DNA from: a virus
Reading direction: 5' to 3' (one strand)
IMG/VR virus record: IMGVR_UViG_3300020112_000969
Coordinates: 7,438 to 71,437 of that record
DNA: 64,000 nucleotides
Position numbers and translations under genes: made by a program. Of the stretch, positions 15,434 to 63,648 are shown piece by piece (the first letter of the stretch is position 1; the number at the start of each line of letters is the position of its first letter). The notes under the pieces were generated by a model, which saw only the letters and a program-made list of their open reading frames with translations, did not search any database and was not told where the DNA came from.

Positions 15434-16410
15434 TAGTAGCAGAACTTATCCTTTGTCTCTCTCAGCTTTGACGGATCGAACTTGATGTAAAATTTCGATG
15501 TGACATCCGTGCTCTTGTGGTTTAACAATCTGGAAATATCCTCCAGCTCCATTCCGAGATTCTTCAAAATTGTCGCGCCGCTGTGTCTGAAATCATGCGG
15601 GTGAAGCGTCGGCACATCAATCATCGCACCGATGTCATTGCACCACTTATTCAGCGTCCCCTTTGTGATGCACTTTCCCTTCTCTCCCGCGAACACATAT
15701 CCTCCGTCGTCTATCCCGTTTTCCTCGCGATAGCGTTTTAGATCAGTCAAAGCGTCTTTTGTTTCATCGTTGAAAAACAGATCTACAAGATAGCCCTCTT
15801 TTTCAAGAACCTCTGTCACGATCTTTTCTTCAAAATCGATCTGCTCCCAACGTACGCTGCTCACCGCATTAACTCTCGCCATCGTGGAAAGAGAAAACAG
15901 TGCGTAGGTTCTCATTTGCAATGCCCTGTGCTTCTTTCCCGGCGTAGCTGCATTTCCCACCTGGTCTGAAAGAGTGCGGCGCATCTGAGCAACTTGTTCA
16001 AGACTCAGGTATGTCTGTGTCACAACATCTGTGTCCTTTTTGGGACGATCAATAAATTCCATCGGGTTGCTCTCAATCAGCTTCTTCTTTCTCAGAAACT
16101 TATAGAATGCAGCAATCGAGCTCATACGTCGCTTCATTCTTCGAGAGTTGTTCCCCTCTGACTTGCAATAATACAAAAACTCGGTGATTTCATCCTCACC
16201 GAGTTCAGTAACAGGGCGGTTGCCCTGATTGTCATAGATGAACAACCACCATTGCTGAAGGTCGTTCAGATATCCGTCAATCGTTCCTGCGCTCAATTCG
16301 CGCAGCGTCATATCGATCTTGTATTTGTTCCAAAGGCGCAGTGTCTCCGGATTGATTTTTTCCAGCTTCTGCGCATCGTAGAACCGAAGCGATTTGCTTT
16401 TTTCAGCCAT
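15433..16410 (-). CDS. tyrosine recombinase (Xer-like)
   Basis: C-terminal HPHDFRHSGATIL...LLNHKSTDVTSKFY gives the R/HxxR/Y catalytic motifs. Start at ATG 16410 (MAEKSK) with RBS AGGGGG. Confidence 0.7.
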   Translation of the reverse strand: MAEKSKSLRFYDAQKLEKINPETLRLWNKYKIDMTLRELSAGTIDGYLNDLQQWWLFIYDNQGNRPVTELGEDEITEFLYYCKSEGNNSRRMKRRMSSIAAFYKFLRKKKLIESNPMEFIDRPKKDTDVVTQTYLSLEQVAQMRRTLSDQVGNAATPGKKHRALQMRTYALFSLSTMARVNAVSSVRWEQIDFEEKIVTEVLEKEGYLVDLFFNDETKDALTDLKRYREENGIDDGGYVFAGEKGKCITKGTLNKWCNDIGAMIDVPTLHPHDFRHSGATILKNLGMELEDISRLLNHKSTDVTSKFYIKFDPSKLRETKDKFCY

Positions 16411-23369: not shown

Positions 23370-24419
23370 TTACATCGCCCTCGCGCTCTCATCCTCTCTT
23401 TCTGTCACAGAGCTGTCTACGAGGTAGTTGTGCGTCTTGCTGCCAAGGTTCAGATTACGATAGGCTTCCTCAATCTCTTCTCTTGTAATGCCGATGTAAT
23501 CCAGTGTCTGAGCAGCGGAGCTGTGTCCCATGGCTTTCTGAAGAAGCAGAAGCTTTCTCGGATCGTTGTTGCTCATCACCATCTGGTGATACGCCCATGT
23601 CTTACGAAGCGAGTGCGTGGAAAGCTTCATCGTCAAATCAAGCTCCTTCGCAAGCGAGCGGAGCATATGATCCACTCCCTGTCTCGATACAGGTTCGTTC
23701 TTATTGGAGCCTCTGTTGCTCTCAGAGCGGAACATATAGTCGCTCAGTTTCACGTTCTTCGTATTCTCCAGATACAGCGTCACAGCTTCAACGATAGCCG
23801 TATTGATTGTCAGATATCTGTTCTTGCGATGGGTTCTGGTGTTCTTCGTCTTCTGCTCTAAAACGGGAAAGCTGTCCTTGAATGTGTAGTTGTCATTGAT
23901 AAGATTACAGAAGCGAAGCACTCTCAAGTCGCTGATGCGAAGTCCAAGGTTTATACCAACGATAAAAAGCATATTGTCGCGGTAGCGACCGTTACGCTTC
24001 ATGTAATCAGATATGCGCTCGATTTCATCCATATCCTTGATAGGCTCAGCAGCGTGATCTACTGCAAGCTCCTGCGTAACAACTTCCTCAGACGGAGCAA
24101 TCAATCCAGACTTCAGCTTTCTGCATTCCTTCTGGATGGATCTCACGTCAATGTAGCTTTCTTTCTCTCCGCCGGCAAGGGAAGCTCCCGCTTCCATACT
24201 GCCGGACGAACGCTCTTCCGCAGCTTTCTTTTCGTACTCTTTTTCAGAATATATCTCCGTTCCTTTTACCAAGGATCTGCAGCCTGTGCCATTCGCACCT
24301 TTACTTGTCTGGCTGGTAACCTTTACCTCTTCAGCTCTCTTGTCTTGCCGAAGGAAAGCTCCCGCTTTCATGTTCTCTCCCGCTATTCCTTTTCTGTTAA
24401 AATCCAGAGTGATGACCAT
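23370..24419 (-). CDS. int: tyrosine integrase
   Basis: C-terminal HSLRKTWAYHQ...LLQKAMGHSSAAQTLDYIGI (HxxR...H...Y). Start at ATG 24419 with RBS AAAGGAG. Confidence 0.75.
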   Translation of the reverse strand: MVITLDFNRKGIAGENMKAGAFLRQDKRAEEVKVTSQTSKGANGTGCRSLVKGTEIYSEKEYEKKAAEERSSGSMEAGASLAGGEKESYIDVRSIQKECRKLKSGLIAPSEEVVTQELAVDHAAEPIKDMDEIERISDYMKRNGRYRDNMLFIVGINLGLRISDLRVLRFCNLINDNYTFKDSFPVLEQKTKNTRTHRKNRYLTINTAIVEAVTLYLENTKNVKLSDYMFRSESNRGSNKNEPVSRQGVDHMLRSLAKELDLTMKLSTHSLRKTWAYHQMVMSNNDPRKLLLLQKAMGHSSAAQTLDYIGITREEIEEAYRNLNLGSKTHNYLVDSSVTEREDESARAM

Positions 24420-24854
24420 ATCGTATCTCCTTTGCTGTACGCTTCGCCGTAAGACGATCAATGACAGAAGAACCATCGCAGTTCATATATCTTCTCGCCC
24501 AGTATTCTTTCTCTGGCTGCTTATCTATACCAACCAGAAGAGGAACCGCATCTTGAACTATCTATCATTCCACTGTATCAGATGCAACCTAAAAGCAACC
24601 TCAAAGCAGCTAACATTGTTTCAGCGTACCATATATCTGTTATGTATCCGAAGCATCTCTATTTGCTCTTTTCAGAACTGTCTCCCTTCCCAATGTAAGA
24701 GCTGAGACGCCGCACTTATCGTTCCAATGTTTATATTTACATTATAACAGATTTTGTGCGAATTGCAAGTATTATTTGCAATTTCTTTGTTATTTTTTCA
24801 CAAATTCTTCAAAAACAATATCTTTCTTTTTGACAGCGGTTATTGCCGATATAT

Positions 24855-31678: not shown

Positions 31679-31754
31679 GCTCCCGTAGCTCAGTTGGCAG
31701 AGCGCGGTCTTTGTAAGTCCGGCGTCGGCGGTTCAAATCCGTCCGGGAGCTCCA
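31679..31754 (+). tRNA. tRNA-Thr (anticodon UGU)
   Basis: Manual fold: acceptor GCTCCCG/CGGGAGC, D arm GCTC-AGTTGGCA-GAGC, anticodon loop tTTGTAa, T arm GGCGG-TTCAAAT-CCGTC, encoded CCA. One U-U mismatch in the anticodon stem. Confidence 0.6.
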
Positions 31755-31984
31755 CTGAAAGGATGATATTCACATGGACGAAGAAAGCAACAAGTTCAAA
31801 GAAATGACAGAGCGCGAAGCAATAGAACAGTGCGAACACGAAATCTATGCATTGGCGTTTGATTTAATGAATGCGCACGGGAACTATGCAGGCAAAGTTG
31901 CTCTCACGAGCATTTTGGATAGTTTGGAAGAAAACGGGTATTTCATTTAGACATCATGAGTGTCTCGAAGAGGTTTGATTAACT

Positions 31985-32494
31985 ATGACAGGAAACATTA
32001 GAAGATGGCTCATCTCGCTTTACGAAAACGAGATTGACGCAGCACGCTTAAATCTGTGCTGCGATGAAGAGAAAACACTTTTAAGCATCATGGCTTCGAA
32101 CGAAGTGCGGTTATATATCGAAACTCTCCAAGAGCTAAAGAGCGAGATTTCCATTGATGAAAATGCTGACAGATTTGAGCTTATCGACTTCTTTGGCGAA
32201 CCTGCCCTTTTCGCTGAATTCAAGGTTGACAAGAGTTCTGTGCCACAAGACCTGTTTCTCTACGAGATAAAAGGAGACGATTGGCTCCCGGATAAGCCAT
32301 GGTTCGTTAAAGAAAATGTAACTGAACACTTCATCGGGTGCATCATTTGTATGCACGAAATCAGTCTTGATGTGGCATCTGGAGATAGCAAATTCAAAAT
32401 AATCTCGTCAAAAGATATCGACTTTTACGGCGCAGATATTACAATCGAGGAATTTCAAAAAACTGTTCCTCAGGAATATAAAAAAGCAAATTAA
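31985..32494 (+). CDS. hypothetical protein
   Basis: ORF track; 169 aa. Confidence 0.4.
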   Translation: MTGNIRRWLISLYENEIDAARLNLCCDEEKTLLSIMASNEVRLYIETLQELKSEISIDENADRFELIDFFGEPALFAEFKVDKSSVPQDLFLYEIKGDDWLPDKPWFVKENVTEHFIGCIICMHEISLDVASGDSKFKIISSKDIDFYGADITIEEFQKTVPQEYKKAN

Positions 32495-32514
32495 AATTTA
32501 CATGAAAGGATGGT

Positions 32515-33159
32515 TTGATGGCAGTAAAAATTAACATCCAGCCGAATGAAGTGTGGCAGTTCTACAAAGCCAACTCTGCTCGGCTGAAGAACAGCATGGT
32601 TCCAATCGCCGAAGATGACAAGCGGAAAATCAAGCTGTGTCTCACTGACGGGTATGACTACCCGCGCATTGTCCTCGTAGAGTCCTCAACCGGGAAAATT
32701 ATCGAAGCGTCAACGAAATACATGGAGTCGAGCTGCTGCGAATATGTTTCCGACTCGATCTTTGCGAACATGAAAACGGTCGCAGAGGACAAGAAAGATG
32801 CGTCTATCGCAGAAAAAGAGCTTCCTGAGCAGGAAAATATAGACGATCTGGTCAATTCCATGGTCAGCGAAAATACGTCGAAAGATGCAGGCAAAGATGA
32901 AGAGGCAGAAGATGAACAAGGCGAAGAAAACGACAGAGAAATCGAACTTTACGCATCGTTCTTACAATTTCTTGCCACAGTTTGTGATACTGACATTGAC
33001 GACATTGAAACCTGCTTTGACGCCGATGACATCGGAAATACATACGAGGATGTGCTTGAATTTCTTGCCGTTGAACACGGTATCATGATCCGCAGACCTA
33101 TTGTTACGGATGACGGAGAGGTTATTGAATACCCATATGACGGCGTGTTTGAAAGATAA
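32515..33159 (+). CDS. hypothetical acidic protein
   Basis: ORF track; 214 aa; RBS AAAGGATGG. Confidence 0.4.
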   Translation: MMAVKINIQPNEVWQFYKANSARLKNSMVPIAEDDKRKIKLCLTDGYDYPRIVLVESSTGKIIEASTKYMESSCCEYVSDSIFANMKTVAEDKKDASIAEKELPEQENIDDLVNSMVSENTSKDAGKDEEAEDEQGEENDREIELYASFLQFLATVCDTDIDDIETCFDADDIGNTYEDVLEFLAVEHGIMIRRPIVTDDGEVIEYPYDGVFER

Positions 33160-33170
33160 TCGGTGATGTT

Positions 33171-33470
33171 ATGGTACAGAACGCTGCGGTCGTCTCAGAC
33201 ATATTGAGGATTTTCCTTATCGTAATCTATGCAATAGCTCTTGCGGCATCAAGCTTGTATCTCTTTATGTATGCGTTATGGCTATCCGATAACGATATAC
33301 GAGTAAGGGACTATCTGATATATGGTGCATATTTCGCCATATCATATCTGGAGTTTTACGCAGAGCATTATCTTGTAGGTTCGATCATGTTCGTCCCCTG
33401 TATCCTATTTATCATTACAGCAATCAAGTCAAACAATAAGAACCACCACGGCGGCCCGCTCGCTATTTAA
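33171..33470 (+). CDS. small membrane protein
   Basis: ORF track; 99 aa; three hydrophobic segments. Confidence 0.4.
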   Translation: MVQNAAVVSDILRIFLIVIYAIALAASSLYLFMYALWLSDNDIRVRDYLIYGAYFAISYLEFYAEHYLVGSIMFVPCILFIITAIKSNNKNHHGGPLAI

Positions 33471-33496
33471 TATTCAAAATTTAAGGAGAAAACGAA

Positions 33497-34135
33497 ATGA
33501 CAAATGAAAAAATGACAATCCATCAGGCTCTTTGTGAGCTGAAAATTCTCGACTCACGCATTGGCAACGAAATCCGGTCTGGTCAGTTTGTCGGAACGAC
33601 AAAGCACGCTGCTCAGAAAGTTGGTTCTCAGACGGTTCGTGACTTCAGCGAAAACGCCAAGGCGTCCATGGATAAGATCAACGACCTGATTGCACGCTAC
33701 AACGCAATCAAAAAGGCTGTTGTCCTGTCCAATGCAACAACAAAGGTTCGCGTCGGTGACGAAGAATATTCCGTCGCGGAGGCGATTGCCATGAAAAACC
33801 ACGGCATGGACTACTACAAAGCTCTTTACAACGCCGTCAGCTTCCAGCTTAACAGAGCTGATATGAATGTCAAGGCAGAAAACGACACTCTTGAGGCAAA
33901 GGCGGACAGCTATGTCCAGAGTACGTACGGAAACAAGGATAACAAGGGAAACTCTGCTGAGATTGCTCAGGTTCGCGCCTCCTATATGGAGCCTCTCGTA
34001 GTGGAAATCGTTGACCCCGTCAACGCCCGAGAGTTTATCAAGCAGCTCAACGACAAGTTTGACACATTCTCCGCATCCGTTGACTCCGCAATCTCCGTAA
34101 GCAACGCAATCACGGAAATCGAAATTAGCTACTAA
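33497..34135 (+). CDS. hypothetical protein
   Basis: ORF track; RBS AAGGAGAAAA. Confidence 0.4.
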   Translation: MTNEKMTIHQALCELKILDSRIGNEIRSGQFVGTTKHAAQKVGSQTVRDFSENAKASMDKINDLIARYNAIKKAVVLSNATTKVRVGDEEYSVAEAIAMKNHGMDYYKALYNAVSFQLNRADMNVKAENDTLEAKADSYVQSTYGNKDNKGNSAEIAQVRASYMEPLVVEIVDPVNAREFIKQLNDKFDTFSASVDSAISVSNAITEIEISY

Positions 34136-34253
34136 GCATCAAGATAACGACAATCGCTGCGATGCGAAAACCTTGAAGAATGAGCCTTGGTAATTGGGCA
34201 CGCCAAGTTAAATAAGTGCTTATAAAAGACTGTATCGGTTACAACGGCCGATA

Positions 34254-34324
34254 GGCAGAATAGTCAAATGGTAAAGACGCTGGTATAAAAACCGGTAATG
34301 TCGGTTCGATTCCGACTTCCGCCG
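34254..34324 (+). ncRNA. degenerate tRNA-like element (non-canonical anticodon loop of 6 or 8 nt)
   Basis: Good T arm GTCGG-TTCGATT-CCGAC and a 6/7-bp acceptor pairing, but a 3-bp D stem and a non-7-nt anticodon loop. Either a tRNA pseudogene or a non-canonical tRNA. Confidence 0.2.
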
Positions 34325-34621
34325 CTACAGAAGATTTATGATTGCGATAATTTGACTGATTATCAAATATTGCCTCACTTTACGGGAAGAATTTCTCGTG
34401 CCATCTTAAATCTTAAAACTTACGTTCAGTGCTCAATACTTAACCATTAACACTCCAAACATTCTTCAACCGTCAACAATAAACGCATAAGAAATAAAGC
34501 TTTACAAAACCCGGGAAACAAGGTTTGCGCGTGTCTTATTTTAGCGCAAGGTAATCCTCCCGGTTGCATCGTAGCGATTGTTTTTATATATAACGAAGCC
34601 GGCTTACGTCCGGCTTCATAT

Positions 34622-34688
34622 CCAAGTGTAGCTCAGATGGTAGAGCAGCCGTGACGGCTCGTCGCAGGTTCAAGTCCTGCCGCTTGGC
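34622..34688 (+). ncRNA. tRNA-like element with truncated anticodon arm (5-bp stem, 3-nt loop)
   Basis: Acceptor CCAAGTG/CGCTTGG, D arm GCTC-AGATGGTA-GAGC and T arm GCAGG-TTCAAGT-CCTGC are canonical. The anticodon arm is the AGCCG-tga-CGGCT hairpin, four nt shorter than canonical. Confidence 0.3.
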
Positions 34689-34800
34689 ATTTGCCATAGT
34701 CTCTATGGCTCCTTTCACCCATAGCTGTCGGTGGAATTTGCGGCAGCAGCGGTACAGCTAACGTACATATGGCGGCCTTGCCGGTTCCTTGGCCGCCTAC

Positions 34801-34875
34801 GCGGGCATAGCACAATGGTCAGTGCATCGGCCTTCCAAGCCGAGGATGCGGGTTCGATCCCCGTTGCTCGCTCCA
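34801..34875 (+). tRNA. tRNA-Gly (anticodon UCC)
   Basis: Manual fold with all four arms canonical; anticodon loop cTTCCAa; encoded CCA. Confidence 0.75.
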
Positions 34876-34878
34876 CAC

Positions 34879-34955
34879 AGGGCATTAGCTCAGTTGGTTA
34901 GAGCATCCCGCTCATAACGGGACGGTCTCGGGTTCAAGTCCCCAATGCCCTACCA
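34879..34955 (+). tRNA. tRNA-Met/Ile-type (anticodon CAU)
   Basis: Acceptor AGGGCAT/ATGCCCT, D arm GCTC-AGTTGGTTA-GAGC, anticodon stem TCCCG/CGGGA with loop cTCATAa, T arm with one C-C mismatch, encoded CCA. Confidence 0.6.
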
Positions 34956-37823: not shown

Positions 37824-38051
37824 ATGATTAAGGTAACTGTTGGTAACAACGTCAAGCGCGAGTCCGTCATCATCGACGAGAACAGCACCCTCCGTTCCTG
37901 CCTCGAGGCAAACGGCATCGACTATACCCGCGGCCAGATCCACCTGGACGGCGCCTCCCTCAAGCCGGGCGATCTCGACAAGAAGTTCTCCGAGTTCGGC
38001 ATCACTGAGAAGTGCTTCCTGCTGAACGTCGCGAAGCAGGATAACGCATGA
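37824..38051 (+). CDS. ubiquitin-like beta-grasp protein candidate (ThiS/MoaD-size; Gly59 followed by a 16-aa tail)
   Basis: 75 aa; MIKVTV start typical of ThiS/MoaD; strong RBS AAAAGGAGATACAT. Gene order with the JAB and E1 ORFs downstream. Confidence 0.4.
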   Translation: MIKVTVGNNVKRESVIIDENSTLRSCLEANGIDYTRGQIHLDGASLKPGDLDKKFSEFGITEKCFLLNVAKQDNA

Positions 38052-38156
38052 TTTCACAAGTCAGCGCCGCTTGGCGCTGACATATCCGGGTGACGGGTAT
38101 TGTCAGTTCAACTCTGACCGCCCGGTCTATTTACCATTCCATCATTTATAAAAGGG

Positions 38157-39689
38157 GTGTTCATTGTGTTTAAGCAAGCCGTCCATTCGACTGCGCTTAC
38201 GAGTAATGTTGCAAATGATTTCTTCCGTAACATTACAGGAGAATACTTCTCCGGAGATGTGTCATTCGTCTCCTCTATGCGCGCTCTTCTTCATTCCCGC
38301 ATGAAAGATGATGACAACATTCATCTTTCCTTCCATCGTTCCTATTGCGACCACGATCTCACAGAAGATGAAAAGAAAAACATCGTAAAGGTCGTCACAA
38401 AGGACTGGTTTGTTCCGGATAATGGAAACCAGTTCTGCATTTGTTCTGTTCGTTGCACGGACGGAGAGGGATCTTCTGTGTTCGACGGAATTGACGGTTC
38501 GTTTGTATCATCGTTCCACGACTATGAGCGCATCGAAAACATCACGAGCGCATATCGCAAACTCTTCCATGTGTCATGCTTTGTAAACAAGAAGATCAGA
38601 ACGACGGTGCTTTTTGTCGAGAATCTTTCTCTTCGCCGTTATCACTATCTGCAGGCAAGCATTCTTGCAGCAGTACCATGGTACTACGACAACAAGGTCT
38701 GCCCTCCGAACGATCTTGAGCTTGAATTGATCAAGTCCACCAGCGATACGGAGTCCGAGCAGAAGTATGTGTCCTGCATTGAAAAGATTGCAGAGAAATT
38801 CGACTTCAGATCCGGAAGAATCCGCAGTATGCTCAAGGGATTTGAAAATAAGTTTTATTATGAGGAGAAGAAGCGTGTCGCCGATCAGATTTCGAGCAAC
38901 AACAGCTCTATTATCTCCTACAATAACGAGATCGGAAGTCTCCTTAAAAAGGTCGCTGAACTTGAAGTAAAGATGATTGGTCTTGAGGCAAAGACAAATG
39001 ACACAGATGGAGACTCTGAAATCATGGAGTATTTCCTTGCCAACAAGCGTCTCATTCTGGAAACCGTAAGCGAAAACAATCTCGACTTCGCTGTCAAAGA
39101 TTATATCACATACTTTGATGAGGACATGGCAAAGCGTGTGATCAAGAACAGGAGCAGCTATGTGTATTTGCCGCACGGCAGAGACAGAAGCGGCGTTATC
39201 TCCGTCGATGATATAAAGCTCCTTATGACGGCGATCTTTGTCGATCAGAAGCTTCGTATTCGAACCTGCGCGGCATACCGTCTCAAGATGAACGGCAATG
39301 TAAGCCCGTTCACAGGACATTCTTTTGACTCTTCCTGCAACAGTTATATGCCGAACCCGCATATTGACCGCTTCCAGTGTATGGGCAATTATACACGCAC
39401 TGTCAATGAGCTGTTGATAAAGCATGACTATGTAGGCGCTATTGAACAGTGTATTGCAAGTGCAAAGAGCCTCAACTTCGGCGACAGCGCCGTTATGACA
39501 GAGTTTATGGAAACTGTATACGGTGTCAGCAGCCGCGGCTATACAAACAACTGTATCGAGCTTCCTGATGGAAGCGTCACAGATCCTTCCGGAGCAATCC
39601 AGTGGCTCAAGGAAAACAGCAAGGAAAAGGAGAAGCCCGATGAAAAGAGCAAAAAGACAAAAGAGAAAGGAAGCGCAGCAGATGTCTAA
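38157..39689 (+). CDS. large Cys-containing protein between Ubl and JAB (E2-like role unproven)
   Basis: GTG start after AAAAGGGG; 510 aa. C-terminal MPNPHIDRFQCMGNY is only loosely UBC-like (no HPN-x8-C). Confidence 0.4.
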   Translation: MFIVFKQAVHSTALTSNVANDFFRNITGEYFSGDVSFVSSMRALLHSRMKDDDNIHLSFHRSYCDHDLTEDEKKNIVKVVTKDWFVPDNGNQFCICSVRCTDGEGSSVFDGIDGSFVSSFHDYERIENITSAYRKLFHVSCFVNKKIRTTVLFVENLSLRRYHYLQASILAAVPWYYDNKVCPPNDLELELIKSTSDTESEQKYVSCIEKIAEKFDFRSGRIRSMLKGFENKFYYEEKKRVADQISSNNSSIISYNNEIGSLLKKVAELEVKMIGLEAKTNDTDGDSEIMEYFLANKRLILETVSENNLDFAVKDYITYFDEDMAKRVIKNRSSYVYLPHGRDRSGVISVDDIKLLMTAIFVDQKLRIRTCAAYRLKMNGNVSPFTGHSFDSSCNSYMPNPHIDRFQCMGNYTRTVNELLIKHDYVGAIEQCIASAKSLNFGDSAVMTEFMETVYGVSSRGYTNNCIELPDGSVTDPSGAIQWLKENSKEKEKPDEKSKKTKEKGSAADV

Positions 39690-40515
39690 GTATATGAGAT
39701 TTACACCGGAGATCTTAAAGAAGCTCCGCGAGGACTTTGAGCAGTCTCTGAAGCTATCAAGCATTTCTGACGGGAAATTCAATTTCACAAAGACCTTTGA
39801 CGCGCCGACAGAAAAGGCGCGTCTTTACTTTACCGCAACGGCATGGACAAAGACGCTGATCCTCGTCAAGAACTTCGATAAGGAAGTTGCATGGCACGGT
39901 CTTTGCGAGCGTGTTGAGGGTGAGGAAAATGCATTCCGCGTCTACGATATTATCGTCTACCCGCAGGAAGTAACCGGCGCTACTGTCAACACAGATCAGG
40001 TCGCATATCAGACGTGGCTCATGGGGCTGGAAGACGAAGTGTTTTCCAACGTCCGCTTCCAAGGTCATTCCCATGTCAACATGGGCGTCTCCCCTTCCGT
40101 AACGGATATCAACAATCAGGGGAAAATCATCGAGCAGCTTGAGGGTGATATGTTCTATGTGTTCATGATCATCAACAAGTCTCTTACACACTATGTCTCG
40201 ATCTATGACTCGGCAAAGAACATCGTCTATGAAAACGGAGATGTATCCGTCATGCTCGACGGAGCAGGAGTTGACCTCGATGAGTTCATGAAGAACTCCA
40301 AGAGTGTTGTCAAGGAAAAGACCTATACAACTCCTTATTATCAGACGCCGTACGACCGCTCCACTCCGTACGACAATCGAAAGATCGAGGAGTTTGACAA
40401 GAGCTGGAAGCAGCCAGGGAAAAAGAAGAAAAAGGTCATAAACGCAGACGAAACATCTGGTTCCGACGCGTACGATGACGATGACAATCCGTATAGCGCG
40501 TTCGGATACGCGTAA
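39640..40515 (+). CDS. JAB/MPN (JAMM) metalloprotease
   Basis: Exact JAMM motif HSHVNMGVSPSVTD (HxHx7Sx2D) with upstream Glu. Start ATG 39640 after AAGGAGAAG; overlaps the upstream ORF by about 50 nt. Confidence 0.65.
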   Translation: MKRAKRQKRKEAQQMSKYMRFTPEILKKLREDFEQSLKLSSISDGKFNFTKTFDAPTEKARLYFTATAWTKTLILVKNFDKEVAWHGLCERVEGEENAFRVYDIIVYPQEVTGATVNTDQVAYQTWLMGLEDEVFSNVRFQGHSHVNMGVSPSVTDINNQGKIIEQLEGDMFYVFMIINKSLTHYVSIYDSAKNIVYENGDVSVMLDGAGVDLDEFMKNSKSVVKEKTYTTPYYQTPYDRSTPYDNRKIEEFDKSWKQPGKKKKKVINADETSGSDAYDDDDNPYSAFGYA

Positions 40516-40536
40516 TGATAACAGGGGTGATATGAA

Positions 40537-41214
40537 ATGAGCATGGATTTGTCAAAAAGCTATGAATACTTCCAGCCCGAAAAGCTGGATGGACGCGTAC
40601 ATATCATCGGCTGCGGAAGTGTCGGCAGCACGCTCGCAGAAAATCTCGCACGCTGCGGTGTCACAAAGATGACACTTTGGGACTTCGATGTGGTCGAGCC
40701 TCATAACATCGTTAACCAGATGTTCCGGCAGCAGGACTTCGGTCATAAAAAGGTCGAGGCACTTCGTGATATCCTCATGGAAATTGATCCTGACATCACG
40801 AACGATCTTGAGGTGAAAGAGGATGGATGGCGAGGAGAAATACTCTCTGGCTATATCTTCCTGTGTATTGATAACATTGAGCTTCGACGCAAGTTTGTGG
40901 AAAATCACTTTGAGTCTCCGTATGTAAAGGCAGTGTTCGACTTTAGAACCGGTCTTGAAGATGCGCAGCACTATGCAGCAGACTGGAGCAACCACAAGAT
41001 GAAAGAGGATCTGCTTGCTTCCATGCAGTTTTCTCATGACGAAGCAAAAGAAGAAACGCCTGTTTCCGTCTGTGGAATTACGCTTGGTGTGTGTCCTACT
41101 GTGCGAGTGATCTGCGCATACGGCGTGTCGAATTTCATCAATTTTGTGCGTGGGAAGGAGCTTAAAAAGCTGCTCCTTGCGAACGCGTTCACATTTGATA
41201 CGATTGCGTTTTGA
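40537..41214 (+). CDS. E1-like activating enzyme (ThiF/MoeB/HesA family)
   Basis: HIIGCGSVGSTLAENLARCGVTKMTLWDFDVVEPHNIVNQ: Rossmann GxGxxG plus the D.D.VE.SNLNRQ-type motif. Confidence 0.7.
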   Translation: MSMDLSKSYEYFQPEKLDGRVHIIGCGSVGSTLAENLARCGVTKMTLWDFDVVEPHNIVNQMFRQQDFGHKKVEALRDILMEIDPDITNDLEVKEDGWRGEILSGYIFLCIDNIELRRKFVENHFESPYVKAVFDFRTGLEDAQHYAADWSNHKMKEDLLASMQFSHDEAKEETPVSVCGITLGVCPTVRVICAYGVSNFINFVRGKELKKLLLANAFTFDTIAF

Positions 41215-41247
41215 ACTTAATCTAAAAAGAAAGGACGGTGAAAAAAC

Positions 41248-42075
41248 TTGGAGTGTACGATTGATCGCCTGAGCATCGGCACAAGGATTTATTTCGGCAA
41301 GTACTCGCCGAACGAAGGAGTTGTCCCACCTGCAGCAATCAGGTGGATTAAGGTATCTGCTGAGAACGATATGTTATCGGAGTGCGTTCTCGGTAAGTTC
41401 CCGTTTGATGCGTCCGAAAGCGACGACAGAAGAGCTTCTGTATACAATCTCGGAAATAGAAATTATGCGGAGTCAAACATTTTTTCCTTCCTCAACTCAA
41501 AGGAAGATGAGTGGTTCCAGCCTATGAATGCAAACGATCGCCCGCCGATTGACAGAAACATTGCATGCGCTCGTTATTACTGGAGAGGTGCAAGCCGTGT
41601 GGACGAATTTGCAAAGCACGCAGGGTTCCTAAAGAATTTTCATGACTACGAAATCAACAGCGTCATTTCTGACATCAATTTACCGTCTAAAGATGAGATC
41701 ATGAGCTGGCCGTACTTTAAGAGAAACGGCAAGAGGCCGCATCCGACCGCCGAATATATTCGTCTTTATTCGGAAGATGAGTTGAACAGTGATTGTTTCT
41801 GCGATTTCTGGCTTAGAACCACTGACATGATCCATAAGGAAGAGGCAATGCTGTTTGCGAGAAACGGTCAGTTTTCACATGAGTATCCATATCATGCCCG
41901 TGGAATTCGCCCTACATGCCGCCTGTCTGCGTCTACTGTTGTGGAAAGCACAGACGACGGTGTCTTTGTAATCAAAAAATCGAACGGAACAAGAAGTGAC
42001 CGTCGAGATAAAGAAGAAGCAGCAGCGAACATATGCGACCTGTTCTCTGCGCTCGGTTTAGGCAGCTCCGATTAA
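41248..42075 (+). CDS. hypothetical protein (possibly lectin/FGE-like; function unknown)
   Basis: ORF track; 275 aa. Its stop immediately abuts the first copy of the conserved repeat module. Confidence 0.4.
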   Translation: MECTIDRLSIGTRIYFGKYSPNEGVVPPAAIRWIKVSAENDMLSECVLGKFPFDASESDDRRASVYNLGNRNYAESNIFSFLNSKEDEWFQPMNANDRPPIDRNIACARYYWRGASRVDEFAKHAGFLKNFHDYEINSVISDINLPSKDEIMSWPYFKRNGKRPHPTAEYIRLYSEDELNSDCFCDFWLRTTDMIHKEEAMLFARNGQFSHEYPYHARGIRPTCRLSASTVVESTDDGVFVIKKSNGTRSDRRDKEEAAANICDLFSALGLGSSD

Positions 42076-42439
42076 AAGCTGCTACGTAACGATATTTCTT
42101 TTGCATTTTTGTAAAAGAGCTTCCGCGTTCCGCGAAAGTATCCATTTGTCCCGAGGAAGAAGATGAGAGGCAGCTCAGAATGCGCATCCCAAGTCGACTC
42201 CGTCCAATCACTGGATGAATTCCAGGGATCCGCCTTCGAGCCGGCACGCGTCCCGGTCAACTGCCACACAACACCTACGCCTGCTGCGCAATGCGCCACC
42301 AAGGCCGAACTCGCGAACAACACCTCCCAACAGCTATACTATATAGCTAATGCTGCAGGTGCCCATCTCCCTCCTCCAGGCCGTTAACTCTATTTAGGTT
42401 ACGGAAATCTTTCAATCAATCAAGAAAGGAGAACCAACG
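42076..42439 (+). ncRNA. candidate retron non-coding RNA (msr/msd-like) element 1
   Basis: Non-coding; begins with the 74-bp conserved module; bounded by inverted repeats CGTAAC (about 42085) and GTTACG (about 42398); internal hairpins such as AGCTATA-cta-TATAGCT. Lies directly upstream of the retron-type RT. Confidence 0.3.
42089..42162 (+). repeat. conserved 74-bp module, copy 1 (100 percent identical to copy 3)
   Basis: gatatttcttttgcatttttgtaaaagagcttccgcgttccgcgaaagtatccatttgtcccgaggaagaag; contains the tandem TTCCGCG TTCCGCG. Confidence 0.7.
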
Positions 42440-43579
42440 ATGGTATATGTAACGCTTCGGCAATCCCCTCAGTACCGCCAGATATCAATGGAAGAGCTTC
42501 TGTTTGGGGATAATACCAGTACATTTATCAATGGCAACGAAACCAATACGAGAACCTATGTTGTTGAGCGCCCAAGCGAACGGCTTATGCGCAGCATTGA
42601 TACCGCAGCGCTCACACGCTGCCTAATGGAATTTAATCAGAGGACAGCACCTCTTCGCGAGAAAAAGCGTTCTGAACTTTATTATACATTCTATATCCCG
42701 AAGCATTCCGGCGGTCTTCGGCGTATCGATGCGCCAAATGAAGAGCTTATGACTGCTCTTCGCGAGCTGAAGATGATTTTTGAGACGAAGTTTCATGCGC
42801 TTTGCCATACCAACGCATTTGCTTATATCAAAAACCGCAGCACGATCGACGCTGTCAAAAAGCATCAGAAAAACGAGAGCCGTTGGTTTGCGAAGTATGA
42901 CCTTCACAACTTTTTCGGTTCAACTACGCTGAAGTATGTTTCAAAAATGTTTTCCATGGTGTTCCCGTTTTCTGAACTAATGAAATATCCTGCAGGAAAG
43001 GCAGAGCTGGAAACGGCTCTGTCTCTTTGTTTTCTAAACGGACATCTTCCGCAGGGAACACCAATCTCCCCTCTCATTACAAATATTATGATGATCCCGT
43101 TTGACCATGCGCTTAGCAAGAAGCTTCACGAGGAAGGAGAACAGAATTTTGTCGTTACCAGATATGCAGACGACTTTATCATCTCTTCGCGCTACAGCTT
43201 CCGGTTCCGCGGCGTTGAGCAAACGATCAAGGATACGCTGAAGTCATTCGGCGCTCCGTTTAACATCAATTCAGAAAAGACGCGTTACGGTTCCGTTACT
43301 GGAAGCAACTGGAACCTTGGCGTCATGCTCAATAAGGATAACGAAATTACGATCGGATGCGAAAAGCACAGGCAGTATCGCTCTATGCTTTTCCACTATG
43401 CAGAAGATAAAAAGAAAGGAATTTCGTGGCCGATTGAGGACGTCATGATGATGAGGGGAATTTTATCCTATTGGCGCATGGTCGAGGGTGACCAACCAGT
43501 TAACGAGTGCGCCGCATCTATCAGTAGGAAAACAGGGGTTAATGTCTTGCGAGCAATCAAAGACGACCTCCGTTCCTAA
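42440..43579 (+). CDS. reverse transcriptase, retron-type
   Basis: RT motifs YYTFYIPKHSGGLRRIDAP (domain 1), RSTIDAVKKH (retron-like), DLHNFFGST, LPQGTPISPLITN, RYADDFIIS (YADD), then VTG after motif C. 379 aa with no maturase or endonuclease domain. Confidence 0.7.
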   Translation: MVYVTLRQSPQYRQISMEELLFGDNTSTFINGNETNTRTYVVERPSERLMRSIDTAALTRCLMEFNQRTAPLREKKRSELYYTFYIPKHSGGLRRIDAPNEELMTALRELKMIFETKFHALCHTNAFAYIKNRSTIDAVKKHQKNESRWFAKYDLHNFFGSTTLKYVSKMFSMVFPFSELMKYPAGKAELETALSLCFLNGHLPQGTPISPLITNIMMIPFDHALSKKLHEEGEQNFVVTRYADDFIISSRYSFRFRGVEQTIKDTLKSFGAPFNINSEKTRYGSVTGSNWNLGVMLNKDNEITIGCEKHRQYRSMLFHYAEDKKKGISWPIEDVMMMRGILSYWRMVEGDQPVNECAASISRKTGVNVLRAIKDDLRS

Positions 43580-43585
43580 TATAAT

Positions 43586-43882
43586 AAGCCTGTAATGATA
43601 TTTCTGATTTATCAGAGCTTCCGCGTTCCGCGAAAGTAACCATTTGCTCCGAGAAAGATGTACAGAAGGAACGCCAGCGGGCCCGTATCCGCGCTGCCAC
43701 TCAGTGTAGGAATTCTCGCATCGCCTGATCATAGGCGCCAACGACAGAACCGAGCGCTTGCAGCGCAACGGAATCCGCGCGCGAAAGTACATGTCATCCG
43801 GAGAAAGCTGAGCAGTCGATTGCTGGAGCTTAGTTTCCACACGACGACTAACCGTCAGCAGCTCAGAGCACATCCTATTCAA
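43586..43882 (+). ncRNA. candidate non-coding element 2 (diverged module), bounded by 11-bp perfect inverted repeat AAGCCTGTAAT / ATTACAGGCTT
   Basis: Starts right after the RT stop. Diverged conserved module at 43597..43668, then a GC-rich variable part with an internal partial copy (CGCGAAAGTA). No ORF. Confidence 0.25.
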
Positions 43883-43887
43883 TTACA

Positions 43888-44236
43888 GGCTTATCTCTTT
43901 CCAGCGATATTTCTTTTGCATTTTTGTAAAAGAGCTTCCGCGTTCCGCGAAAGTATCCATTTGTCCCGAGGAAGAAGGGATGGAAGAGAACCAGAAGACA
44001 CTCTTCCAGCGAGCTTTAACCTACACGAGAAGCTCGTGAACCTTGGCCGTCCAAAATAACCGATTGGTCAACTGTCATACACATTGTGTCTCAACGCTTC
44101 AGACAGGTTATCCCTTCAGGGTCTCGGTGCACTGCATCTCTTAACCCTGCAGCTTACCTAACCCTCCAGATTTAATCGCTCTAAACTTGAGACTATCCTC
44201 AGGAACTTCAGAGTACCCATTCTCTTTGGCTGGAAA
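43888..44236 (+). ncRNA. candidate non-coding element 3 (module copy 3 at 43896..43969), bounded by inverted repeat TTTCCAGC / GCTGGAAA
   Basis: 74-bp module identical to copy 1, followed by a different about 260-bp variable part. No ORF. Confidence 0.25.
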
Positions 44237-44290
44237 ATCATCGCATAAAAGTCACGTTTTATGCAAAAACATTTGAAAGTGAGGACTATC

Positions 44291-44818
44291 ATGACAAGAG
44301 AAGAATTTGTAAACATGCGCCTTGACGACGTAGGAGTTTTTATCGACTTCCTTCGCGGAAACGGCTACTACGATCTCGTAGACGACATCGTTCTTTTAGA
44401 CGATCTCAACAGCGAGATCAACGACGACCTCGACTTCGTCGTTCATTGTGAAGGATGGAGTTGGCAGGAAGTTCAAGACCATCTGCAGGACATCGATACC
44501 TATGGAGACGCGTTTGTCCACGAAAGCGATCTTGTATTCAATCCGATGGATGAGGACGAATTCGAAGAGCTTCTTCGCGATGCTCTTGATCAGCTTGACG
44601 CAGACCGTTTCGAGTGGGATGAGACAGAGGAAATTGAAGATCCGGAATTTGATTTGATGAAGGAATTCAGCATTGAAAACACTCCGTCTGCTTCTGATGA
44701 AGATAAGGAAGCTGTCAGAGAAATGCAGAAGCCAAGCGCCATCATGCCCGTTTACATCGCTCTTAATATCAGCATCGGATCCGGAAAGAACTCTGAAACC
44801 GCCCACCAGACGATCTAA
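44291..44818 (+). CDS. hypothetical highly acidic protein
   Basis: RBS GTGAGGA then ATG; in frame with track ORF 44261..44818. Confidence 0.4.
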   Translation: MTREEFVNMRLDDVGVFIDFLRGNGYYDLVDDIVLLDDLNSEINDDLDFVVHCEGWSWQEVQDHLQDIDTYGDAFVHESDLVFNPMDEDEFEELLRDALDQLDADRFEWDETEEIEDPEFDLMKEFSIENTPSASDEDKEAVREMQKPSAIMPVYIALNISIGSGKNSETAHQTI

Positions 44819-44903
44819 TCCAGTACACTATCGGCGCAAGCCGACAATTATATTTTAACCCCGTATGAAAATTATCTGCATTTACATAGTATCCCATGCA
44901 GAT

Positions 44904-44934
44904 GCTCCTGCGTTACGCGAGAGTAACCATTTGA
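44904..44934 (+). repeat. degenerate fourth copy of the conserved module core
   Basis: gctcctgcgttacgcgagagtaaccatttgag compared with gcttccgcgttccgcgaaagtaaccatttgct. Confidence 0.4.
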
Positions 44935-44964
44935 GTTTTGCATTTCCTCGCTGTGATCACACGA

Positions 44965-44998
44965 GGGTAAATTTTTGCGAACCCGCAAAAATTTACCC
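44965..44998 (+). promoter_or_regulatory. perfect 15-bp stem hairpin GGGTAAATTTTTGCG-aacc-CGCAAAAATTTACCC in the leader of 45115 gene
   Basis: Seen in sequence; no downstream T run, so more likely regulatory or a protein-binding palindrome than a terminator. Confidence 0.4.
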
Positions 44999-45114
44999 AC
45001 AAGTGATCCCTACGCTCAGAAACGGCATTACAAGCACACGAAAAAGAGCGCACAGTCAGATCTGTGCCCTTTTGTCGTGCAGATACGGGAGACTATCAGA
45101 AAGGAGAAGTATCA

Positions 45115-45401
45115 TGCAAAGAGAGGAACTAAAGCCAGGCGCAACTGTGAAGATCGTCGATAGGTGGGATGGCTTCGTTGGTCAGAATTTGTCAGGTGAT
45201 ATGGACTGCTGGCTTGGGAAAATTATGACAATACTTTCAGGAGATATCATTAACAACCGTTTTTCAATGATTGAGGACGGCGGGCGATGGGTTTGGAATT
45301 CCAGAATGTTTGACCTCGACTTTGATGAATGCTCTGCTGACAACGACCCAATCACGGTAGCGCAGGACGATCTTACCTCCGTCATTGGAATTCTGACATG
45401 A
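45115..45401 (+). CDS. small protein, member E of the C-terminal-tail family (..DDLTSVIGILT)
   Basis: RBS AAAGGAGAAG; in frame with track ORF 44865..45401; N-terminal VKIVDRWDGFVGQN. Confidence 0.5.
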
Positions 45402-45407
45402 TCATAA

Positions 45408-45617
45408 TTGTATATGGTTGATTTCTACAGAACTGTTTTTAACGAACATGAACATTATCTCGGATCGTCTCTGAGGTATAGCTCAACATATGGAGAATGG
45501 CAGTGGTTGTCCGAAAACATGTCTATTGATGACACAGAATCACAGAAAGAAAACCTTCTTGAAGATGATTTATCATCATCTGTTAATATGATTACTTCTA
45601 TTTTGGAGGGAGAATAA
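45408..45617 (+). CDS. hypothetical small protein with related C-terminus (..SVNMITSILEGE)
   Basis: ORF track; 69 aa. Confidence 0.35.
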   Translation: MYMVDFYRTVFNEHEHYLGSSLRYSSTYGEWQWLSENMSIDDTESQKENLLEDDLSSSVNMITSILEGE

Positions 45618-46811: not shown

Positions 46812-47507
46812 ATGATCTATTGCATTTCAGATATTCACGGAGAAATTGACCGTTTTCATGCCATGCTCGACAAGATATGGTTTACATCGTCAGATACGCT
46901 TTACGTCCTCGGCGATGTAATCGACCGCAAGGAAAGCGGAGTTGCAATTCTGCAAGAGATCATGAAGATGCCGAACTGCAAAATGCTTCTCGGTAATCAT
47001 GAGTATATGTGCCTTAACGCCATGCTCAATCGCGAGGAAGGAGCAACCAGGCTATGGAAGGCAAACGGAAGCTCACCTACATACCGCGCATTAAAATATA
47101 AGTTATCGGACGAAGAACGCGAAAGTGTTCTTCGTTTCCTTTTATCGCTCCCGGATCACGCGGACATTGCGGTTGGCGGCAAAGCCTATCACTTAGTCCA
47201 CGGTTGGTTTGGGAGCGATACTTATTCGCGCGTATGGACGCGTCCGACGGATTTCAATCGCGAAGATCCGTTTGGAAATAATTTCACCATGGTCGTCGGT
47301 CATACGCCGACACCGTTTTTGAGACCGAGAGACTACAGCATGCTCTCCGATGCAGACGAGTTTCCGCCGTTCAGCATCTTCCATGCCACTAAATGGGGCG
47401 GCAGAGAGTTTGACTTCTACGACATCGACTGCGGGTGCGGAAATGAAACGCCGCTCCGGCGTCTCGGGTGCCTCAGGCTCGATGACCTACAGGAATTTTA
47501 TGTGTAA
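46812..47507 (+). CDS. PPP-family Ser/Thr protein phosphatase (metallophosphoesterase)
   Basis: Motifs SDIHGE, GDVIDRK, GNHEY in the order typical of lambda-phosphatase / ApaH-like enzymes. Confidence 0.7.
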   Translation: MIYCISDIHGEIDRFHAMLDKIWFTSSDTLYVLGDVIDRKESGVAILQEIMKMPNCKMLLGNHEYMCLNAMLNREEGATRLWKANGSSPTYRALKYKLSDEERESVLRFLLSLPDHADIAVGGKAYHLVHGWFGSDTYSRVWTRPTDFNREDPFGNNFTMVVGHTPTPFLRPRDYSMLSDADEFPPFSIFHATKWGGREFDFYDIDCGCGNETPLRRLGCLRLDDLQEFYV

Positions 47508-62682: not shown

Positions 62683-63648
62683 GTGAGAGATGTGTACAAT
62701 GAGGAACGCAAGTTAAAGTTCATCAAGGAAAAGTTCACAAGCGAAGCCGCGGCTATGGTGTTATACAGCACGTTCAACACGTTTGCCCCTTATGAGGAAA
62801 AATGGGGCGCAGATCTTTGCACAAGAAGCGCCGCGGATCTTCAGCCAATACTCGACTCGTCCGGCAGGATGTCTCGTGGCAAGAAAGCGTATGTCAGCAC
62901 TGTCAAAAAGTACGTATTATGGTGCATCGATCAAGGAATCGAGGATGTAAACAACGACGCTCTTTCCGTTAAGTTTATGGCTGACAAGGATCTTGTCAGA
63001 CAGAAAACAAGAGACACCATGTTCGCATCTCCTCTTCATCTGCAGACCGTTATGGACACGATATTTGAGAGCGAGGATGAAGAAACAGCAGATCTTGCCT
63101 ACAGAGCGTGCCTATGGCTCATCTATTCCGGAGTCGATCCAAACGACGTCGAAATCGTGTTGTCAAGCGATATTGACCTTCGCGATATGACCATTCATTA
63201 CGATGGACGATACCTCCCTATTTACCGCGAGGCGATGCGCTCCATCCGTTTGTGTGTGGAAAACGAGTCGTTCCGCTTCATCCATCCGATCCACGGTGAA
63301 GTTCGTCCACGTGCGCGCATTGATGGGAAAGAGCTTCTGCGCTCCTATAAAGGTGTCGTCTCCACTTATACTGTGCGCATCCAGTCTCACAAGAGGAAGG
63401 AACGCGCAAAGAGCAACGGCGACTTCGTTCTTCGCGAAATCACGCCGAAGGCTGTCTATGAATCCGGTTTGTTCTACCGTGCGTATGAAAAGGAATGCGC
63501 CGGAATTATTCCTGATTTCAAAGACGAGCTTTTAAGAAGATATGTACGGCGCAACAAAAATGTCTGTTTGAGCGAATACGGATTGTCATGCGCTGTCCAA
63601 AGGAAAAAAGAAGACTATCTCATGTGGAAGGATGCATTCCACGGATAA
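62683..63648 (+). CDS. hypothetical protein
   Basis: ORF track; GTG start; 321 aa. Confidence 0.35.
   Translation: MRDVYNEERKLKFIKEKFTSEAAAMVLYSTFNTFAPYEEKWGADLCTRSAADLQPILDSSGRMSRGKKAYVSTVKKYVLWCIDQGIEDVNNDALSVKFMADKDLVRQKTRDTMFASPLHLQTVMDTIFESEDEETADLAYRACLWLIYSGVDPNDVEIVLSSDIDLRDMTIHYDGRYLPIYREAMRSIRLCVENESFRFIHPIHGEVRPRARIDGKELLRSYKGVVSTYTVRIQSHKRKERAKSNGDFVLREITPKAVYESGLFYRAYEKECAGIIPDFKDELLRRYVRRNKNVCLSEYGLSCAVQRKKEDYLMWKDAFHG

Follow-up and report, generated by a model that had tools for sequence, protein, structure and literature searches.

A phage retron-type reverse transcriptase accompanied by an array of four msr-msd-like RNA elements, a candidate natural multitron

Retrons are understood as bacterial three-part defence systems, each made up of one reverse transcriptase (RT), one non-coding RNA (ncRNA) and one effector. 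The locus described here, which lies in a stretch of 64,000 nucleotides (nt) of phage DNA (hereafter the window; positions 7,438 to 71,437 of IMG/VR record IMGVR_UViG_3300020112_000969), raises the question of whether a single retron-type RT may serve several templates. The RT encoded there, of 379 amino acids (aa), is accompanied on its own strand by four non-coding elements that begin with a common 5' module and differ in their 3' parts. An earlier note on this DNA, made from the sequence alone, had proposed that one such RT serves several msr-msd-like RNAs with a common 5' module and different 3' templates. Sequence comparison supported this proposal, because the RT matched retron RTs best, the elements carried a1/a2 inverted repeats with a guanine (G) adjoining a1, the stem-loops of the module covaried, the layout was conserved in related loci, and the second stem-loop and its tail diverged together with the RT. 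We put at roughly 0.75 the probability that the locus is a phage-borne retron in which one RT is served by an array of four msr-msd-type ncRNAs, that is, a natural 'multitron'.

The repetition of the module proved real. A 30-nt core (GCTTCCGCGTTCCGCGAAAGTAWCCATTTG) was found at positions 42119, 43617 and 43934 of the window, on the plus strand in each case, where 0 occurrences were expected in shuffled sequence, and a diverged fourth core was found at 44904. A covariance model of the module, built from related sequences, gave exactly four matches in the 64 kb, again all on the plus strand (42083-42149, 43589-43647, 43898-43964 and 44864-44934). The three non-coding elements reported earlier were all present, but the total was four same-strand elements (Table 1), since the fourth copy, which had been called degenerate, turned out to be a complete element with its own a1, G, stem-loops, tail, interior and a2. 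Copies 1 and 3 were 100% identical as claimed, over 73 nt (42090-42162 and 43905-43977) and not 74, and copy 2 (43588-43660), rightly described as diverged, was 67% identical in ungapped register. The identity between elements 1 and 3 began at the final base of a1 and extended 14 nt beyond the tail (43905-43977 in element 3), and because the module is identical in the two elements while the flanking a1 and the interiors differ, this points to recent conversion of exactly the msr-like functional unit. The 'tandem TTCCGCG TTCCGCG' that had been noticed within the module is in fact the two arms of the second stem-loop, CGCG-TTC-CGCG.

All four elements and the RT gene lie on one strand, tightly packed among genes, and are for that reason probably transcribed together; a promoter and terminator scan of 37-48.5 kb gave counts within shuffle expectation and so delimited no transcription units. 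The ribosome-binding site and ATG of the RT gene follow 36 nt past a2 of element 1, and element 4 is followed by the ribosome-binding site and ATG (45114) of a 95-aa open reading frame (ORF). Two further ORFs lying after a purine-rich tract (42163-42387 and 43658-44059) were rejected as genes: they were unconserved in relatives and showed no codon periodicity, and one of them crossed the conserved module of the next element.

The window RT was a singleton, with nearest relatives about 61-63% identical in protein, viral-contig, metagenome and metagenome-assembled genome (MAG) collections. In total, 4,906 proteins matched it at E <= 1e-10, of which the best 120 were listed, a count that may extend beyond this phage family; further relatives numbered 124 on viral contigs, 265 in metagenomes and 26 on MAG contigs, and the relatives were mostly carried by contigs of roughly 60-150 kb from human and animal gut. 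A DNA search with positions 41200-45500 against phage records gave no match, and exact-match scans for the window's own module in viral and metagenome collections found none. The lineage of the window is thus without close relatives, and what is inferred for its four elements is drawn from homologues whose RTs are 43-63% identical.

Each element was bounded by an inverted repeat of its own, in the manner of retron a1/a2. All three pairs named in the earlier note were present, the middle one being longer than stated (13 of 13 base pairs (bp)), and the private repeats of elements 1 to 4 measured 6, 13, 8 and 7 bp, respectively. In all four elements a G stood directly 3' of a1, as it did in 57 of 58 distinct aligned copies; the 58th row is a gap, which we attribute to element 4 of the window having been aligned by the covariance model with a gap across its G. 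The G was located by a motif-anchored search with its own null, not by a fixed nhmmer alignment column. In 230 copies, the perfect helix abutting the conserved G was mostly 8-13 bp long, whereas among 984 control sites the commonest length was 4 bp and 29 sites reached at least 7 bp, and when a broader motif was used to locate the G, 200 of the 230 had a helix of at least 6 bp. In the relatives a1 ended in TGTAAT, TGTAAC or TGCAAT, followed by the G, and its perfect complement a2 was found 220-340 nt downstream, usually directly preceded by TGTAG or YAG; in the window this was seen only in elements 1 and 4. The distal part of the helix covaried between genomes (for example, AAAACTTTGTAAT/ATTACAAAGTTTT versus AAAGTTTTGTAAT/ATTACAAAACTTT). 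Among the seven most divergent relatives examined, the arrangement a1-G ... YAG-a2 was the best helix upstream of the RT in four (L254, L255, L259 and L261; RT 41-43% identical) and the second-ranked helix in L248. The G is, on this evidence, the putative branching primer site.

The minimum-free-energy fold was closed by a1/a2 in 47 of 47 representative elements (mean z -2.9), 33 of which folded better than shuffles by more than 2 standard deviations. Folding of the window elements, a check that had been suggested, likewise gave four structures each closed by its own a1/a2, with z = -2.1, -3.8, -4.8 and -8.05 for elements 1 to 4, respectively; all four contained the two 5' stem-loops, and that of element 4 also a long central hairpin. 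The latter, at 44955-45008, dominates the interior of element 4. It had been reported as a 15-bp perfect hairpin beside copy 4, and it is indeed present, with arms of 25 nt (44955-79 and 44984-45008) that are 88% complementary.

The G was followed by two stem-loops (SL1 and SL2), then by a conserved tail (T-A-A-C-n-A-n-T-T-G-like), and then by a variable interior of 150-260 nt. In a hand-made structural alignment of 15 sequences, 99.5% of cells were paired and 17 of 19 pairs had changed on both sides (slid controls, 38-47% paired), and in a model-made alignment of 58 distinct sequences the corresponding values were 95.6% and 16 of 19, with a covariation of 0.51 against 0.15 in shuffled alignments (0 of 500 shuffles as high; slid controls, 33-46% paired); as the proposed structure had been used in fitting both alignments, the pairing percentages are inflated, but the number of double changes was large. 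Copies from one genome shared 78% identity over SL2 and the tail together, and copies from different genomes 47%, the latter value rising with RT identity (Spearman 0.44), and for SL1 the figures were 23% and 24%. SL2 plus tail reads GCTTCCGCGTTCCGCGAAAGT in the window type and CTCTGTATTGTAAATCAGAG in the L038 type. Because SL2 and the tail are homogenised within genomes and co-diverge with the RT, the pattern is that expected if they formed the recognition element of the genome's single RT on all copies, with SL1 needing shape only.

The RT itself was matched best by retron models throughout. The best PADLOC models were all retron RTs (RT_II-A, 7.5e-45; RT_III-A, 1.2e-38; RT_I-A, 3.6e-37), in NCBIfam retron_St85_RT (1.6e-51) came before group II (6.9e-23) and Drt2 (1.1e-10), and the six best PDB matches were retron RTs, with Ec83 first (4e-20), followed by Ec78 and other retron entries, and Ec67 and Ec86 lower. 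A grouping with group II or Abi models, which the earlier note had held would refute a retron, was accordingly not seen in PADLOC, NCBIfam or PDB, nor was one with DRT models, and the lack of a maturase or endonuclease domain that it had remarked on was borne out by Pfam, in which RVT_1 was the only match, with no fused effector domain. A group II intron was rejected (TIGR04416 at 81 bits against a cutoff of 300; RVT_1 only; no intron RNA family in Rfam at E = 10), as was a defence-associated RT of the UG/Abi clades (Drt2 at 41 bits against a cutoff of 390, Drt3a at 24 against 200, and AbiA at 18 against 250). The protein is extended at its N-terminus by about 75 aa, and its YADD and QGxxxSP catalytic motifs were intact across relatives. 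Mestre et al. (PMC7736814) define NAxxH and VTG as the signature motifs of retron RTs; in 21 relatives the residue best conserved in each, H and G respectively, was invariant. The VTG after YADD that had been taken for the retron VTG lies 6 residues upstream of the homologous position and is replaced by SSAG or SRAG in relatives. Judged by these matches, the RT is a divergent member of the retron RT superfamily with intact catalytic motifs.

Although the module sequence of the window found no match in relatives with up to 7 mismatches, a search of related phages had been called for and showed the same architecture: the multi-copy layout recurred in about 180 related loci, on human and animal gut phage contigs of roughly 60-150 kb. 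In a profile search of 187 fetched loci, 468 module copies were detected, all on the RT strand, with one copy upstream and two downstream of the RT in 82 loci, one and one in 45, and one and three in 3. Usually a first copy lay about 300-370 nt upstream of where the RT starts and a second directly past the stop codon, and often there were one or two more. A module repeated without any RT, which would have suggested a promoter or operator, was never encountered: in the window and in the 187 loci no copy was found away from the RT or on the opposite strand.

The same distribution bears on the possibility that the elements are structured intergenic RNAs acting in cis (as leaders, in processing or stability, or in translational control) and not templates, the RT having some other substrate. 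Each a2 is indeed followed either directly by another element or, 15-55 nt further on, by the ribosome-binding site of the next gene, and a regulatory output is conceivable given that type VI retrons are reported (bioRxiv 10.1101/2025.10.22.683967) to control the translation of a downstream gene by reverse transcription. Such an output and reverse transcription do not exclude each other, however, and elements 2 and 3 stand in tandem with no gene between them, the module occurs only beside the RT and four times in 64 kb, and both the a1-G ... a2 geometry and the co-evolution of SL2 and tail with the RT are specific to the retron mechanism. We give this explanation a small chance. A slim one is left for the view that only the upstream element works and the downstream copies are decaying, functionless duplicates: the canonical retron order is msr-msd and then RT, only the upstream copy was detected in more distant relatives (L001, L230 and others) with the models used, and the 73-nt identity of copies 1 and 3 shows recent duplication or gene conversion. 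Yet more than 130 loci had downstream copies in matching positions, their a1/a2 helices of 8-13 bp were kept, with compensatory changes, their 5' modules evolved 3-15 times more slowly than the 4-fold degenerate sites of the RT gene, and their stem-loops covaried, which is not expected of decaying copies.

The interiors, which would correspond to the msd part, behaved quite differently from the 5' modules. Their variable sites lacked 3-base periodicity (p = 0.80-0.97), as befits non-coding sequence, whereas in the adjacent RT gene the periodicity reached p = 1e-26 to 1e-52, with 83% of variable sites in one codon position. Between phages whose RT genes were about 96-97% identical, 5' modules were 95-98% and interiors 65-85% identical (average 77-85%), the transitions being abrupt and lying about 15 nt past the tail and about 14 nt short of a2. 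Measured against the 4-fold degenerate sites of the RT gene, interiors evolved at 0.65-3.3 times the rate, the 5' module being 3-15 times slower than those sites; strong hypermutation is not indicated at such rates, and the interiors are essentially free in sequence, and somewhat faster than neutral in one clade. Their composition was A 30.5%, C 29.6%, G 22.1% and T 17.8%, so that a cDNA copied from them would be G+T-rich. The 3' parts had been called GC-rich, and at 47-57% G+C they did lie above the 5' modules (37-42%), but they are better described as A+C-rich and T-poor. Some interiors carried conserved structure: in one related clade a central hairpin was invariant and some compensatory pairs were seen, and the element downstream of the RT in the L002 clade contained a perfectly conserved hairpin (TGAATCCATTGTGnCACAATGGATTCA; alignment A6, columns 156-181) within an otherwise fast-evolving interior with two allele classes, so that parts of the template region appear to be under strong constraint.

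A phage RT beside non-coding repeats whose interiors vary strongly between close phages also recalls the diversity-generating retroelements of phages, which share the template-like non-coding sequence and the local sequence diversity, and the elements might be template repeats of such a retroelement, or of a similar retro-homing system, that rewrites a phage gene. This is very improbable. The RT is of another clade, being retron-type by its best models; a blastn-short comparison of the four interiors with the whole window gave no significant match (best 16 nt, E about 0.8); the differences between relatives were spread over all base pairs and were not adenine-specific; no template and variable repeat pair or Avd-type accessory gene was identified; and the template is the invariant partner in those systems, whereas here the 'template' itself varies. 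Hardly credible is a chance accumulation near the RT of mobile elements resembling miniature inverted-repeat transposable elements, which are likewise short (about 300 bp), non-coding and bounded by inverted repeats, since the terminal repeats here differ between units, the units have one orientation and fixed syntenic positions only next to the RT in about 180 loci, and there are neither target-site duplications nor copies elsewhere.

Besides the inflated pairing percentages mentioned above, several observations weigh against a multi-template retron. The RT scored 175 bits, under the NCBIfam cutoff of 235 for retron_St85_RT, and would therefore belong to a separate subfamily. NAxxH reads AVKKH in the window RT (aligned to NAKIH of Ec83) and AVKRH, LLKRH and the like in relatives, and the triplet homologous to VTG in the Ec83 alignment is NLG, with ILG, CLG and MLG in relatives. 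No Rfam family matched the elements even at E = 10 (in the window only tRNAs did so at gathering thresholds), and the retron ncRNA match hoped for from such a search was therefore not obtained beyond chance level. The a1/a2 of element 1 is only 6 bp long and weak when taken alone, since a length of 6 bp is attained at about 11% of control sites. In elements 1-3 the interiors, at 235-265 nt, are long, with branched folds predicted and not a single long hairpin, and in one related clade no conserved interior structure was predicted. Finally, a PADLOC scan of nine neighbouring proteins found no known retron effector, only the E1-like and JAB-like proteins described below matching any family, and the usual three-part logic of retrons, with the effector that most classified types possess, is therefore not seen. 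At the RNA level, the sequence features that would mark a retron appear to be present, and at the level of the RT only part of them.

If the locus is a multi-template retron, the operon transcript would fold into four independent msr-msd units. In each unit the private a1/a2 helix would bring the G immediately 3' of a1 beside the 3' end of the interior, the RT would bind SL2 and the tail and prime from the 2'-OH of the G adjoining a1, and the interior would be copied from the base just 5' of a2 toward the conserved segment after the tail. The product would be up to four different branched RNA-DNA molecules (multicopy single-stranded DNA, msDNA) of up to about 150-260 nt, made by one enzyme. 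The priming and copying steps are drawn from established retron biochemistry (summarised in PMC7736814), and the scheme is biochemically plausible because engineered arrays of this design, in which arrayed msr-msd units work with a single retron RT, have been built (PMC10370050, Gonzalez-Delgado et al. 2023). Those multitrons resemble the present locus in having several msr-msd units, with a repeated msr and distinct msd, in one transcript with one RT; they differ in being synthetic and based on retron Eco1, and their msds carry editing donors homologous to chosen targets, whereas the interiors here match nothing else in the window. The paper on them (PMC10370050) mentions no natural counterpart.

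With the canonical retrons nearest to it, those of RT types I-A and II-A (Ec83/Eco4, Ec78/Eco7 and St85/Sen2), the locus shares the RT clade, an upstream ncRNA on the same strand, a1/a2, a G at the 3' end of a1, two msr-like stem-loops and a variable msd-like part. In known retrons, too, msr is conserved and msd variable. The locus differs from them in its two to four ncRNA genes for each RT, most of them downstream, in the absence of an adjacent ATPase/HNH, NDT or other known effector, in AVKKH and NLG in place of NAxxH and VTG, and in interiors of about 150-260 nt, as compared with the msd stems of 10-50 bp cited in PMC7736814; and whereas canonical retrons are cargo of defence islands, the system here is a conserved part of a family of phage contigs of roughly 60-150 kb. 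Effector-less retrons are known (PMC7736814), and the orphan (msr-msd)-RT cassettes of Mestre et al. 2020 (PMC7736814) likewise consist of RT and ncRNA with no recognisable effector gene, but they belong to RT clades 2 and 11, occur mostly in Gammaproteobacteria and Actinobacteria and have a single ncRNA, whereas the present system is phage-borne, probably in phages infecting Clostridia, and has several. Retron-type RTs of the same superfamily are encoded by other phages (the Staphylococcus jumbo phages Madawaska and MarsHill, and P2-like Klebsiella and Pf-like Pseudomonas phages), and these are 26-29% identical to the window RT and lie in another gene context. The literature found, whose coverage was incomplete so that an earlier description is possible, describes neither a natural retron with several ncRNAs nor the retron of this phage family; from every described retron found, the locus would differ by its several ncRNA genes per RT, its long templates, its conservation across a phage family and its constant neighbour, a block resembling ubiquitin-like protein (Ubl), E1 and JAB genes.

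Table 1. Positions of the retron-like elements, the RT gene and other features of the window (SL, stem-loop; IR, inverted repeat)
Feature	Position	Strand	Basis or details
Integrase-like gene	23370-24476	-	phrog_216, 4.9e-41
Five tRNA genes, cluster	31679-34952	+	Rfam tRNA, 47-70 bits
Conserved upstream block, four genes in the orientation of the RT	37824-41214	+	Pfam, PADLOC, NCBIfam; weak DUF2604 match in the block, 0.018
75-aa beta-grasp-like protein	37824-38051	+	
470-507-aa protein, invariant H...C motif	38157 or 38277 to 39689	+	
315-aa protein, weak JAB match	39568-40515	+	PADLOC JAB, 1.4e-4
225-aa ThiF/E1-like protein	40537-41214	+	Pfam ThiF, 5e-22; PADLOC E1-E2, 4.7e-19
DUF6273 / Hoc-like Ig-domain protein, between E1-like gene and element 1	41248-42075	+	in 7 of 14 sampled relatives
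Element 1, retron-like ncRNA gene directly upstream of RT	42085-42403	+	covariance model, 29 bits; fold
Element 1, parts	a1 42085-42090; candidate branching G 42091; SL1 42097-42118; SL2 42119-42139; tail 42140-42148; interior 42149-42397; a2 42398-42403	+	
Element 1, IR	42085-90 / 42398-403	+	CGTAAC/GTTACG, 6 bp
RT, retron-type, 379 aa	42440-43579	+	PADLOC, NCBIfam, PDB, Pfam
Element 2, begins 5 nt after RT stop codon	43584-43894	+	covariance model, 23.9 bits; 13-bp IR; fold
Element 2, parts	a1 43584-43596; G 43597; SL1 43603-43616; SL2 43617-43637; tail 43638-43646; interior 43647-43881; a2 43882-43894	+	
Element 2, IR	43584-96 / 43882-94	+	ATAAGCCTGTAAT/ATTACAGGCTTAT, 13 of 13
Element 3, begins 3 nt after element 2	43898-44236	+	covariance model, 26.2 bits; fold
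Element 3, parts	a1 43898-43905; G 43906; SL1 43912-43933; SL2 43934-43954; tail 43955-43963; interior 43964-44228; a2 44229-44236	+	
Element 3, IR	43898-905 / 44229-236	+	TTTCCAGC/GCTGGAAA, 8 bp
175-aa strongly acidic (D/E-rich) protein, between elements 3 and 4	44291-44818	+	ORF from 44261; start with ribosome-binding site 44291
Element 4	44860-45089	+	covariance model, 18.8 bits; 7-bp a1/a2 abutting G; fold
Element 4, parts	a1 44860-44866; G 44867; SL1 44874-44903; SL2 44904-44924; tail 44925-44933; interior 44934-45082; a2 45083-45089	+	
Element 4, IR	44860-66 / 45083-89	+	CCCGTAT/ATACGGG
Calcineurin-like metallophosphatase gene	46812-47507	+	
Integrase-like gene	62683-63648	+	phrog_5830, 6.9e-11

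The Ubl/E1/JAB-like block, which is not a described retron effector, provided the only constant neighbours of the RT. Block and RT followed each other in the same order in 70 of the 71 untruncated loci retrieved through the 470-aa protein, and the order held down to identities of 24% for that protein and 37% for the RT; the sole exception, L244 (IMGVR_UViG_3300021431_000092), carried the block with no RT detectable within 5 kb downstream. The linkage may reflect function, or a gene order conserved in the phage family. An RT homologue in MT836269 (28% identity) was set aside, since it stands in an unrelated context and was of no help in testing the link to the E1/JAB block. The Ig-domain gene between the block and element 1 was present in only half of the sampled relatives, and this junction therefore tolerates insertions.

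The window belongs to a tailed phage, with portal, large terminase, exonuclease and integrase-like genes and five tRNAs, and its portal shares about 37% identity with the portals of Brevibacillus phage Sundance and other large siphophages of Firmicutes. The two integrase-like genes suggest a temperate or otherwise integrating lifestyle for a phage whose contig is roughly 70 kb or more. MAG labels of the relatives, which are binning hints only, were mostly of Clostridia (Acutalibacteraceae, Oscillospiraceae, Ruminococcus and Lachnospiraceae), and on the basis of these labels the hosts of the phage family are probably Clostridia. In related loci, tRNA genes were also observed a few kb downstream of the retron.

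As to what the array may do for the phage, our best guess is that it yields single-stranded DNA or msDNA in bulk, A-poor and G+T-rich, with little depending on the exact sequence, which would fit because there is no known adjacent effector, the system is conserved family-wide, several copies are present per genome and the interiors are nearly free. Of the specific roles, we would place first a counter-defence decoy or sponge acting during infection. A sensing part in a prophage exclusion system, with an effector not yet recognised, is nearly as likely, because integrase-like genes are present and the defence-like Ubl/E1/JAB operon adjoins. A part in priming replication or in donating DNA for recombination is less likely, since no homology to a target turned up. 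Throughout a large and abundant gut phage family the retron is conserved to the same degree as the genes around it, and it comes without a recognisable toxin; this points away from abortive infection of the host and towards a function of use to the phage. Tentatively, and with more doubt than conviction, gut phages may have turned the retron into a phage tool, either an effector-less RT that mass-produces long msDNAs (for example, as decoys for defences that sense DNA or msDNA) or a new kind of retron working with the Ubl/E1/JAB operon; the constant neighbourhood of a ubiquitin-like conjugation operon offers a lead to a new functional partnership. Were the multi-template reading true, a design that has so far been seen only in engineered systems, with several templates for one RT, would already exist in nature, and the RT would tolerate interiors of about 150-260 nt of almost free sequence as well as several templates at once, both of which are properties sought for retron-based single-stranded DNA production and multiplex editing.

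Two further genes lie close to the array. The strongly acidic 175-aa protein encoded between elements 3 and 4 had no match in Pfam, PHROGs, NCBIfam or PADLOC, and homologues were present at varying positions in 9 of 14 sampled related loci; speculatively, it may be of a DNA-mimic or anti-restriction type. Debranching enzymes belong to the metallophosphatase superfamily, and a role of the calcineurin-like metallophosphatase in msDNA processing is conceivable by analogy; in many relatives its gene starts right after a2 of the last element (for example, L002 6739-7437). On one 223-kb MAG contig (CAPRNP010000001.1, labelled Acutalibacter muris; L264), a second pair of genes for 131-aa and 75-aa products was observed downstream of the retron (15269-15980), matching in product length, the only property compared, the pair upstream of the conjugation-like block, and the label of this contig hints at an Acutalibacteraceae host.

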